A DNA stretch of 64,000 nt from Candidatus Spongiisociaceae bacterium (GTDB taxonomy: Bacteria; Actinomycetota; Acidimicrobiia; Spongiisociales; Spongiisociaceae). This document shows, piece by piece, positions 57,679-61,726 of the stretch; within the stretch, counting starts at the first letter, position 1, and every line of letters starts with the position of its first letter. The stretch covers positions 1,792,001 to 1,856,000 of the forward strand of contig OZ253564.1 in NCBI GenBank assembly GCA_965262915.1, written 5' to 3'. The notes under the pieces were generated by a model that was given only the letters and a program-made list of their open reading frames with translations, ran no database searches and was not told the origin of the DNA. Both the position numbers and the translations under genes were made by a program.

Positions 57679-57850
57679 AACCCGGATCGGTCCACCGGCT
57701 CGAAAGGCTGGAGGAGGAGAACGAAATCCCCTACTTGGGGGCGATAGTGCCGTAGGCTGGTGCCGTATCGGTGTCGATGGGTGAGATGACGGTGTCCTGC
57801 GTCTTTGGTAAGAGGGTCCGGGGTTGTCGTTCCTGCCTGAAGGAGCTGCC

Positions 57851-58576
57851 ATGAGGAAGCTGGTTTTGCTGGTGGCGGGGCTGGTGCTGACTGCGGTTGC
57901 GTGTGGCGGCGATGACCAGTCCGAAGAGACGACTACCACCAGCCGCCGCACCACTGCTACCACCAGAGCCGCGCCGGTGGTGGAGAGTGAACCTACCACC
58001 ACCGCGATCCCCTTCGAGGATGAGGTTGTCGAGATCTCCCCCACCACTCTGCCCGAGGATGAGGAGTCCGTCACCACCACCGGCGGTGCGATGCAGGAAG
58101 AGACCGTGTTGACGATCGATGCCGTGGTCACGCTGCGAGCTCTGGGCCCGGTACGGATCGGTATGACGGTGGACGAGGCGTCGGCCGCGGCCGGTGCGCC
58201 GCTCCGTAAGGACTTCGGTCGGCAATCGACCGGCAGTTGTCACTACGTGACCGCCGGGGAGGCGTTGCGAGGCGTGGCCTTCATGGTGGTGGACGGTCTA
58301 ATCGCCCGTATCGAGGTGGACCGTCCCAGCCCGGTGGGCACAAGGTCGGGTGTCAGGATCGGGACCTCCGCCTCCGACCTGCGGAGCGTCTATCCCGACA
58401 ATATCCAGAGAGCCAACGACGCGGTGGCCGGCGGTGAGGCGTTGGCGTTCGTGCCTAACGACGAATTCGATGCCAACTACCGGATCTATTTCGAGATCGT
58501 GGACGGAGCGGTGGCCCGTTACCGCCTCGGAATCAAGCCGGCGGTCGACTTCCTGAACGGATGCGCGGAGGAATAG
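57851..58576 (+). CDS. Lipoprotein of unknown function
   Basis: MRK-hydrophobic-LTAVAC lipobox, Thr/Glu-rich linker, LGPVRIGM and TRSGVRIG motifs. Confidence 0.8.
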   Translation: MRKLVLLVAGLVLTAVACGGDDQSEETTTTSRRTTATTRAAPVVESEPTTTAIPFEDEVVEISPTTLPEDEESVTTTGGAMQEETVLTIDAVVTLRALGPVRIGMTVDEASAAAGAPLRKDFGRQSTGSCHYVTAGEALRGVAFMVVDGLIARIEVDRPSPVGTRSGVRIGTSASDLRSVYPDNIQRANDAVAGGEALAFVPNDEFDANYRIYFEIVDGAVARYRLGIKPAVDFLNGCAEE

Positions 58577-58607
58577 TCAGGTGTCAGACACCCCAGGCGC
58601 GTAAATG

Positions 58608-59829
58608 TCAAGCTGCGGCTCGGTCGATGGTGGTTCGGTGTGCCCAGGCGGTGTGTTCGTTGTGGGGGGTTTGGTGTTTGAGGCAGCCGTGGAGGATGCC
58701 GACGAGTCGGTTGGCTAGGGCTCGGAGTGCTTGGTGGTGGAGGTCGCCGGCTGCTCGTTTCTGGTCGTAGAAGGCTCGGGCTCCTGGGCTTGGGGTTAGG
58801 GAACAGAACGCCCATTGGTCCAAGGCGTCGTAGAGACGCCGCTTTTCGGACGTGGCGGGCCAGGACAGCACGTTTGCGGCCCGACGCCACGGTGATGGGC
58901 GACGTTCCGGCGTAGTTCCTGCGAGACTTGGCGCTGGTGTAACGGTGGGGGTCGTCCCCGAACTCACCGAGCGCCCGGGCGCCGAGCACAGTACCGAGTC
59001 CTGGCTGGGAGTGGTAGATGACGGCGTCCGGGTGCTGCTCAAAACGGGTCTGGAGGGTTGCTTCGAGTTGGCTGATCTGGCGGTTGGCCTCCCCAATGAT
59101 GCTCACCAGTGCCCCGACAGTCGCTCCGAAGGCGTCCTCAACCGGCCCCGGTGCGGCGAGGTGAGCAGCTCGGAGGCCCGCTTGGATACGGCGGGCGACC
59201 GGATCGAGGTTGCGTCGCCGTCCGCCCCTTTTGAGCGCAGCTCGGATCTGGGGCAACGTCAGGCGAGCGCCCATGCTGGGGGTGGGTGCCCGACCCAGTA
59301 CGGCCACAGCGTCGGAATGGGCCAGGTCAGCGAACGTTTCCAGCGCTGCGGGATAGTACTCGCGCAGAGCGTTGCGGACCTGGTTGGTGTGACGAGTCCG
59401 AGCCCAGATCAGGTTCTGATGGGTTCTGGCCACGATCTTGATACCTTCCGATTCGGGGCTGTCACCGGCCACGGGACGGTGGTTGTGACGGTCGGTGCGT
59501 ACCAGATCAGCTAACACCTTGGCATCACCGCGGTCTGATTTAGCTCCGCCCAGGCTGTGACGGTCCCGGTAGCGGGACACCGCCCTAGGGTTGATCGCAT
59601 ACACCACATAGCCCGCCGCGACCAGCGCACCGACCCACAGCCCACGATCGGTCTCGATGCCTACCACTACCTCAGCCGCATCCGATGCGTGCTCGGCGAC
59701 CATCTGGTGGAACCTGGCTATACCTTGGATCCCTTCCGGTATACGGGCGAACCCCAGCCGGGTCCCACCCTCGTCCAGCAGATACACATCGTGGTGGCCC
59801 TCAGCCCAGTCGTTACCCACAAAAATCAT
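58608..59829 (-). pseudogene. IS110 transposase/recombinase with one +1 frameshift near the C-terminus
   Basis: VGND, GIETD, KSDRGDA (DEDD); YAGTSP..ASG; frame switches at the T4 run 58843-58846 into KRRLYDALDQWAFCS...ALRALANRLV. Confidence 0.88.
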
Positions 59830-59874
59830 CTTCGCCTCCCTCGTGCGGATCGATTCTTGCCGAGCTGTGGAGAA

Positions 59875-60062
59875 CGCCTGGCGGCGACCTAATGGATCAG
59901 TGCTCTGTGGCACGCCACCCCATGAGCGCTACAAGCGGCCCTCGCGAACCGGCCGGGGTACGATCTGACACTAGGAATCAGCGTTCCGGGTGCCACCAGT
60001 ACTCACCGGCCGGCCAGCTCAACCACCACACCCTCCCAGACAAACCGGCAGAAGTGGTGGAC
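59875..60062 (-). ncRNA. IS110 bridge RNA (predicted; ends approximate)
   Basis: 5' hairpin, then two internal loops whose strands match the target flanks and the donor junction. Confidence 0.85.
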
Positions 60063-60091
60063 CCCCATTAGGTGTCCCACTGTATTAGCAC

Positions 60092-61726
60092 CTAGCTATG
60101 TCTGTACCAGTCGACGTGTTCCGGGGGGAGTTGGGGGTTGCCGAGGATCATGTCGGCGGCCCGCTCGGCGATCATCATCACCGGGGCGTAGATGTTGCCG
60201 TTGGTGATGTTCGGCATGACCGAGGCATCGACCACCCGCAGGCCGTCGATACCGTGGACCCGTAGCGAGTCGGGATCCACCACCGCCATCCTGCCGGCTC
60301 CCATCCTGGCCGTGCCGCACGGATGGAGGGCGGTCTCGGCGTCCTTGGCGACCCAGGCGAGGATCTCCTCGCCGGTTGTCACGCCCGGCCCGGGTGACAA
60401 CTCCCCTCCGTTGAACTCCTCGAGTGCCGGCTGGTTGAGAATGCGGCGGGTGAGGCGCACGGCTTCCACCCATTCCTTGCGGTCCGTCGCGGTCGACAGA
60501 TAGTTGAAGCGCAGCCCGGGTTTGTCGAACGGATCAGCCGACTTGAGGAAGATCTCGCCGCGGGCGTCCGAGTACATGGGTCCTGCATGTACCTGGTAGC
60601 CGTGCCCACCGGAGGGTACGGACCCGTCGTAGCGGATGGCGATCGGGAGGAAGTGGAGCATCAGGTTCGGGTAGGTCACCTCGTCGTTGCTCCGGATGAA
60701 CCCCCCTCCTTCGAAGTGGTTGCTGGTTCCGGGACCACGGCGGAACAGCCACTGGAGCCCGATCCAGGGTTTCCGCCACGGGGCCAGATGAGGCTGGAGC
60801 GAGACCGGTTGCTTGGAGGCGTACTGGATGTAGACCTCCAGGTGATCCTGGAGGTTCTGCCCCACGCCGGGCAGGTCGGCGACCACATCGATACCCAGCC
60901 CCTCGAGGCGCCCGGCGGGACCGAGGCCGGACAGCATCAGGAGTTGGGGCGTGTTGATAGCGCCTCCGCAGGCGATGATCTCGTTGCCGGTCACCCTGCG
61001 CAGGCTCCGGGCCTTGCGGTATTCCACCCCGATGGCCCGCATGCCGTCGAAGAGGATCCTGGTGGCGTGGGCCCTCGTCGTCACGGTGAGGTTCGGTCTT
61101 GCGATCACCGGATGAAGGTAGGCACGGGCTGCGCTGAGGCGGCGTCCCCGGTAACGGTTGGCGTCGAAGGCGGCGAAACCCTCCTGCCGGTAGCCGTTGA
61201 CATCGGTCGTGCGTGGGATTCCGGCCTGCTCGCCGGCCGCGAAGAACGCCTGGAAGAGGGGGTTGGTGGCCGGGCCCCTCTCCAGGATCAACGGTCCCGA
61301 TCCTCCCCGGTAGCGGTCGGTTCCCGCCAGGGTGGTCTCGAGCCGTTTGAAGTAGGGGAGGCAGTGGGCGTAGTCCCAATGGGACATCCCCGTCTGCGAC
61401 GCCCATTTCCGGTAGTCCAGGGGATTACCCCGCTGGAAGATCATCCCGTTTATCGAGCTCGATCCTCCGAGTACCTTCCCCCGGGCGTGATATACACGCC
61501 GTCCACCCATGTGCGGCTCGGGCTCCGATTCGTACTTCCAGTCGTAGAACCTCGACCCGATGGGGTAGGTGAGGGCTGCCGGCATGTGGATGAAGACGTC
61601 CCAGCGGTAATCGGGCCGGCCCGCTTCCAGAACCAGGACCCGGTTGGAAGGATCGGCGCTCAGCCGGGCGGCGAGGGCGCATCCCGCCGAGCCCCCGCCG
61701 ACGATGATGAAGTCGTAGGCGCTCAT
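60092..61726 (-). CDS. betA: Choline dehydrogenase (GMC oxidoreductase)
   Basis: [59 protein letters not shown]. Confidence 0.92.

Follow-up and report, generated by a model that had tools for sequence, protein, structure and literature searches.

An insertion sequence of the IS110 family lying in the window (by which we mean the whole stretch of 64,000 nucleotides that was analysed) raises the question of whether its two ends carry the two halves of a single promoter. The right end would supply the -35 box and the left end would complete the -10 box, the two coming together only when the element is excised as a circle. Such an arrangement had been proposed in an earlier note on this DNA. Taking the lines of evidence described here together, we consider it probable that the circle junction is a functional, circle-specific promoter (Pjunc) of a bridge-RNA-guided insertion sequence. 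The split-promoter mechanism is already known in the family, and the earlier note was right to call junction promoters established for IS110 circles, as the relevant parts of the reports on IS621 and ISPpu10 document (PMC11208160, PMC13626964, PMC12288879). What is new is the actinobacterial member; knowledge of the mechanism is unchanged by the finding.

In IS621, the circle is reported to reconstitute a sigma-70 promoter across the core, with the bridge RNA transcribed from the junction (PMC11208160). Integrated IS621 copies are described as weakly expressed by read-through, and the junction promoter has been proposed to boost bridge RNA and recombinase after rare excision (PMC13626964). ISPpu10 has, according to the account in PMC12288879, a weak native promoter and a hybrid one, which combines a right-end -35 with a left-end -10 and is strong only in the minicircle; the junction of this minicircle was obtained by PCR, sequenced and found active in a lacZ fusion. 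For ISPpu9, the same account reports circles formed through a shared dinucleotide, an efficient native promoter, and a junction with neither promoter activity nor a predicted promoter. Circle-junction promoters in elements with DEDD transposases also include the Pjunc of ISEc11 (IS1111 group) and the circle junction of IS492 (both as cited in PMC13626964 and PMC12288879).

The element extends on the minus strand from 60071 to 58586 (1486 bp including the CT at both ends). Its own genome contains 23 matches to it, 11 of which are full-length copies with 85-100% identity. Similarity among these 11 stops exactly at two CTs, at ..CCT followed by AATGGGGG on the left and after GGGGTGTCT on the right. 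Alignment of the copies with their flanks showed the left terminus ..CT-AATG in all 11 and the right terminus GGGGTGT-CT in 10 of them, and CT was present at both boundaries in 10/11. The two element ends, CTAATGGGGG and GGGGTGTCT, have no inverted-repeat relation to each other. With DEDD domains, a shared core dinucleotide and sequence-specific targets, and without terminal inverted repeats, the element belongs to the IS110 family (IS110 group).

In the same alignment, the target halves flanking the window copy both read GACAC, at 60072..60076 (left, minus strand) and 58581..58585 (right, minus strand, within a heptamer repeat). Across the own copies, the flanks read G(A/G)CAC-CT-G(A/G)CAC in seven and GGCTC-CT-ATCA in three. 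Contigs assembled from four public sequencing runs diverge from the window at 60072/60074 and 58586/58587, and another break falls at 58579; a contig of 764 nt (run X16) has a single difference over 287 nt of the right flank, and carries further heptamer repeats where the window has the element. The assignment of the ends, with a CT core on both sides, is thus confirmed independently of any promoter argument by the own copies, by the covariation of bridge-RNA guides with flanks (below) and by the breaks in contigs from other samples, and it agrees with the ends given in the earlier note. From the ends, the guides and the other-sample contigs together, we infer that the target is G(A/G)CAC-CT-G(A/G)CAC inside tandem heptamer repeats.

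The genome has 63 arrays of at least three tandem heptamers (A/G)(A/G)CACCT, the longest with 21-23 units, and 317 candidate 14-mer targets G(A/G)CACCTG(A/G)CACC. An array of the strict pattern adjoins three of the 11 own copies (e.g., the left flank of L003 and L006), and the others lie in shorter or imperfect repeats. One copy, L009 (G000:C1:290128-291612), has an aberrant right terminus, ..CCTGGGG-ATGCTCCT-ATGGTTG, where the other copies have ..CCTGGGGTGT-CT. The eight bases ATGCTCCT are also the left flank plus core of L009, so that its right end seems, from the sequence, to be fused to a complete target-like site. The distance between L009 and L011 is 1.3 kb.

The left end of the element is non-coding over about 240 nt and has the anatomy of a bridge RNA, placed by a consensus fold of 31 left ends at 59880..60062 (minus strand), with a 5' stem-loop followed by a target-binding loop and a donor-binding loop. 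In the IS1111 group, by comparison, the guide RNA lies downstream of the gene that encodes the transposase. The fold, computed from the left ends of 31 relatives, has 36 pairs, with compensatory changes in 20 of them, and comprises the 5' stem-loop and two further stems; with the C of the CT core taken as position 1 of the left end, the 5' stem-loop starts at position 13. Four guide segments could be assigned on the minus strand. The left target guide GGCACC (59989..59994), in the sense of the left flank G(A/G)CAC-C, and the right target guide GTGTCAG (59965..59971), the reverse complement of CT plus the right flank GACAC, were both identified by covariation among the own copies: GGCACC changes to GGCTCC or TGCTCC in exactly those copies whose left flank is GGCTC-CT or TGCTC-CT, and GTGTCAG changes to GTGCTAG, GTGCCAG or CTGATAG where the right flanks are CTAGCAC, CTGGCAC or CTATCA. 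The left donor guide ATGGGGTG (59916..59923), in the sense of the right-end terminus TGGGGTG, was located by own-copy alignment and the consensus fold. The right donor guide CCATTAG (59889..59895) is the reverse complement of the left-end CTAATGG, and the two covary in relatives (CCAATGG with CCATTGG, CTAATAG with TTATTAG, and CTAATGA with TTCATTAG; pairs 1-7 with 220-226). We therefore have a structured non-coding left end with the target halves matched in one loop and the donor halves in another, as in a bridge-RNA system. A search of Rfam with the region 58300-60400 gave no match to a bridge-RNA family, its sole match being Ms_AS-4, which is described at the end with the transposase gene.

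Some own copies have variant donor-loop guides. The left ends of L004, L009 and L011 carry GAGGGGGTG for CATGGGGTG and TCTGCTAG for TCCATTAG, and L010 carries the first of these variants too. The TCTGCTAG guide mismatches the left end CTAATGG of the copies that carry it; CTAGCA, its complement, is similar to the core and adjoining right flank in insertions of the L005 type.

With the ends in place, the two halves of the predicted promoter can be read on the minus strand. The -35 half, TTGACA (58606..58611), begins in the last Ala codon of the transposase gene and takes in its TGA stop (58610-58608), an overlap with the stop that the earlier note had described. It is followed by a 17-nt spacer, tttacgcgcctggggtg (58589..58605), the 3' part of which, TGGGGTG, is the left-donor sequence matched by the guide. 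A T (58588) and the right CT core (58587-58586) supply the first three bases of TCTAAT in the circle (58586..58588). At the other extremity, the left end consists of CT (60071-60070) and then AATGGGGG, and the left CT core with AAT (60069-60067), the last three bases of TCTAAT, covers 60067..60071. Joining the ends in silico through a single CT gives TTGACA-17 nt-TCTAAT, with 11 of the 12 consensus positions, so the coordinates, the junction sequence and the spacing count of the earlier note are correct; its estimate of about 1.5 kb between the halves in the integrated state compares with a measured 1.46 kb. This is how a junction promoter is arranged: the right end holds the -35, the left end completes the -10, and the whole faces the guide RNA and the transposase. 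TCTAAT ends at left-end position 5 and the 5' stem-loop starts at position 13, so that the predicted start would fall just before the conserved stem-loop, which supports the claim that the promoter points into the bridge RNA. Among the own copies, TTGACA is kept within this arrangement in 10/11, and L009 also has TTGACA, with the aberrant terminus described above. The joined sequence TTGACA-N17-TCTAAT is absent from the assembled genome.

We then looked at the conservation of both halves in relatives, collected by a protein-guided scan that yielded 80 loci with 55-84% amino-acid identity. Their sources are MAGs with the titles Acidimicrobiia, Candidatus Spongiisociaceae, Acidimicrobiaceae and Pseudonocardia, together with contigs of Rhodococcus, Nocardia, Nocardioides and Mycobacterium. 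Of the 80 loci, 72 contain TTGAC. It lies over the stop codon in 69 of the 79 loci with the stop in view, and all 69 have a recognisable terminus 20-21 nt past the hexamer. In two further loci (L065 and L070) the stop is elsewhere and TTGACA is still found 20-21 nt from the terminus. A third, L069, carries the motif too and was left out of the 69 because of an in-frame TAA directly behind it. The motif is missing in seven relatives (L043, L072, L086, L094, L102, L103, and L099, which has GTGACA). The 69/79, with the two displaced cases, is the count free of motif-based selection. The 49 unique right ends and the 47 junction comparisons used below come from loci chosen by a pattern that includes TTGA(C/T), and the 2 bits of information seen at TTGAC in these right ends are a consequence of that pattern. 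In the 49 selected right ends, information amounts to 1.1 bit at the sixth hexamer position and to 0.04-1.0 bit over the 11 spacer positions that follow, and it rises again at the guide-matched terminus TGGG(A/G)TGTCT. The spacer is variable in sequence, with a length of 17 nt in 20 unique right ends and 18 nt in 27. On the other side, the left end opens with CTAATGG in 61 of the 68 relatives' loci in which a left end was found.

Since the motif overlaps coding sequence and stop codon, it might be a coincidence: a conserved C-terminal Ala-Ala-Ala-stop could yield TTGACA incidentally, without any function of the DNA sequence as such. Codon usage speaks strongly against this. The first T of the hexamer is the wobble base of the last codon, and in 53 of 61 unique intact genes the codon before the stop is GCT, as against 301 of the 3845 other Ala codons in these genes (7.8%); the stop codon is TGA in 58 of the 61. 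A last codon that is otherwise rare, together with the fixed hexamer, indicates selection on the DNA sequence and not on the protein. Moreover, the C after TGA, which is non-coding, is kept in 69/69 loci with TTGAC over the stop, the two loci with a displaced stop retain TTGACA, and the hexamer occurs 986 times on both strands of the 5.06-Mb genome (64.4% G+C), or 9.8e-5 per position and strand. We regard coincidence as extremely improbable. The -35 half appears instead, on the supporting evidence of these alignments, as an island of conservation fixed 17-18 nt from TCTAAT across a wide clade and holding a rare GCT codon in place.

When the junction is reconstructed in silico for the 47 unique elements with both ends (selected as stated above), all 47 reach 10-11 of the 12 consensus positions with a spacer of 17-18 nt. 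The real left flank plus left end of the integrated elements has a median of 6 of 12. The right end with its real flank has a median of 9 of 12, and 4/47 reach 10, which raises another explanation, namely that the -35 of the integrated element acts as an outward half promoter and drives neighbouring host genes from a -10 supplied by the flank. At this locus, however, the flank hexamer is TCTGAC and the next downstream gene (57824..58576, plus strand) is convergent. In addition, a flank-derived -10 varies with the target (TCTGAC, TCTGGC, TCTAGC and TCTATC), whereas the circle alone yields one and the same hexamer in every copy. This outward role therefore seems improbable to us, and a promoter assembled in the circle remains the preferred reading.

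The integrated element itself, scanned over 58300-60400, contains no promoter-like and no terminator-like sites under a rule that requires A at -10 position 2, a rule that would exclude the TCTAAT junction too. An ORF for a GMC-type oxidoreductase (60092..61726, minus strand) ends 21 nt upstream of the element on the same strand. With no recognisable promoter in the integrated element and a same-strand gene 21 nt upstream, read-through is the likely basal source of expression, as reported for IS621 (in the part of PMC13626964 that deals with integrated copies). The element sits between convergent genes, the GMC-type oxidoreductase-like ORF (60092-61726, minus) and a lipoprotein-like ORF with a signal peptide (57824-58576, plus). 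Four relatives (L105, L107, L108 and L109) have both flanking genes adjacent and no element between them, in intergenic DNA too diverged to show the target.

A different function could also hold the block in place. TTGAC might be a site for recombination at the DNA level, contacted by the recombinase or serving as a spacing element of the donor, with its resemblance to a promoter as a by-product. A fixed distance to the terminus would suit a protein-binding site as well, and the -10 half is non-canonical, with C at position 2. On the other side, the conserved block is an exact consensus -35, and it stands 17-18 nt from a hexamer matching five of the six -10 positions. A 22-bp IS621 donor, which when cut to this length loses the -35 box, recombines if the bridge RNA is given in trans, which indicates that in IS621 the distal right end serves expression and not recombination (according to the donor experiments of PMC11208160). 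On this balance we find a recombination site unlikely, somewhat less so than an outward half promoter, and retain the circle-specific promoter as the explanation of the -35 half.

The -10 half calls for more caution. In a -10 box, the A at position 2 and the T at position 6 matter most, and the actinobacterial pattern is TANNNT. Reading the junction sequence by eye, we found TANNNT in no register. TCTAAT is present in 44 of the 47 unique elements (from the selected set), none of which has A at position 2, because the CT core sits there; TCTAAT also acts as recombination core and donor sequence, a role from which its conservation is inseparable. The C at position 2 may make for a weak promoter, or for one unusually dependent on the perfect -35. 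Given the CT core at -10 positions 2-3 throughout the clade and the strongly selected -35, it is conceivable, if a long shot, that an active junction would represent a class of -35-dependent promoters tolerating C at the position where melting nucleates. Activity of the junction might also depend on the torsional state of the 1.5-kb circle.

In the model that we favour, the TTGACA of the right end would be joined by a -10-like TCTAAT that arises only in the excised circle, where the two ends share a single CT core. RNA polymerase would initiate about 5-9 nt past TCTAAT, with the bridge RNA's 5' stem-loop directly following, and would carry on from the bridge RNA into the transposase gene, so that a strong output of guide RNA and recombinase would come only from the circle. 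We propose that restricting strong expression to the circle favours re-insertion. Integrated copies would depend for expression on read-through from the GMC-type oxidoreductase gene. A start inside the left end would also omit CUAAUGG, which in integrated read-through transcripts can pair with the right donor guide CCAUUAG, so a masking of the guide in such transcripts is conceivable, though again a long shot; if this were true, only circle-derived bridge RNA would be fully competent for insertion.

The closest known parallel is IS621 of E. coli, which shares with the window element the IS110 family, the CT core, a right-end -35 that lies outside the roughly 11 bp adjoining the core, and a -10 in the donor core region of a promoter facing the left-end bridge RNA and the recombinase gene (as given in the parts of the IS621 reports cited above). 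It differs in its host, Proteobacteria for IS621 and Actinomycetota here, and in that activity has been shown for IS621 and is predicted here. In the window element, the CT core forms -10 positions 2-3, so that the canonical A is lacking. The order of the halves, -35 from the right end and -10 from the left, is also that described for ISPpu10 of Pseudomonas putida; in the present element the hybrid promoter is a predicted one. ISPpu9, also of Pseudomonas putida and of the same IS110 family, is unlike it, since here there is no recognisable internal promoter and the junction is near consensus. Our literature search, with subscription journals mostly outside its reach, found no paper on junction promoters in this actinobacterial clade.

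If the junction is active as predicted, the logic of a circle-only promoter, so far tested in proteobacterial examples, would hold in a broad actinobacterial clade as well. This clade includes Acidimicrobiia-titled MAGs, with copies in contigs of Rhodococcus, Nocardia, Mycobacterium and Pseudonocardia. The right end is also a case of dense coding, with three codes overlapping in about 30 bp: the C-terminal codons and stop, the -35 box, and the donor site with the core. A precisely bounded element with its target and guide segments is, in addition, a candidate bridge recombinase.

We searched for the circle junction itself in several collections. Probes of 26 nt and 17 nt had no match on either strand of the assembly, and assemblies and contigs drop rare forms. 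The Logan contigs of four out of 24 listed runs (X16 and X17, presumed to be RNA, and X18 and X19, which are metatranscriptomes) showed no circle joint; such contigs lose rare forms, as well as transcript starts and levels. Nor was the right end present among the loose contig ends listed for the four runs, compared by eye with the end in the window. Summed contig depth was highest over the left end in 4/4 runs, a measure that is unfit for ranking parts of the gene. In X18 and X19, contigs run past the left boundary of a copy with about 92% identity and into other flanking DNA; they fit an integrated copy and possibly its read-through transcription, with DNA carry-over as an alternative source. 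A 16-nt IUPAC motif of the junction matched 55 stretches in genome_contigs and at least 116 in metagenome_contigs. In 135 loci among the matches listed, eight of which had any IS-like feature, there was no right end-CT-left end junction of the clade. One metagenome contig (L179, minus strand, about 430-395) has TTGACA-17 nt-TCTAAT about 100 nt upstream of a small secreted-protein-like ORF; we rejected it as a circle junction and consider it a chance match of the motif upstream of an unrelated gene.

The transposase gene of the window copy (58608..59829, minus strand), with the domains DEDD_Tnp_IS110 and Transposase_20, is frameshifted by one extra base near 58847-58842, a detail absent from the earlier note. 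The authentic C-terminal frame is the ORF 58608..59096, which ends ..DRAAA-TGA; because of the frameshift, the long N-terminal ORF passes this TGA in another, wrong frame and continues to 58519. The domains were scored on an intact sister copy (L003, 97% DNA identity), with E 2.3e-33 for PF01548 (DEDD_Tnp_IS110) and E 7.7e-9 for PF02371 (Transposase_20), and the window copy encodes the same protein in two frames. With its transposase frameshifted, the window copy would need recombinase from an intact sister copy.

The one-base insertion (window 58842-58847, minus strand) is common to five of the 11 full-length copies (L001, L002, L004, L005 and L009), which read cgaaaagcgg vs cg-taaccgg or cg-caaccgg in the others. 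The copies with the insertion lie at different loci and are 86 to 100% identical; either defective copies have spread, implying mobilisation in trans, or gene conversion has occurred between copies. L005 is open throughout, with the conserved GDDPHRYT stretch in another frame. Finally, the Rfam match to Ms_AS-4, an sRNA of Actinobacteria, lies at 58927-59008 on the plus strand, antisense to the gene in its conserved Transposase_20 part; it scores 84.8 bits, where the gathering score is 50, with E 3.9e-13. It may mark an antisense RNA like Asr9 of ISPpu9 and Asr10 of ISPpu10 (as these are described in PMC12288879), or the Rfam family may record conserved IS110 coding sequence.
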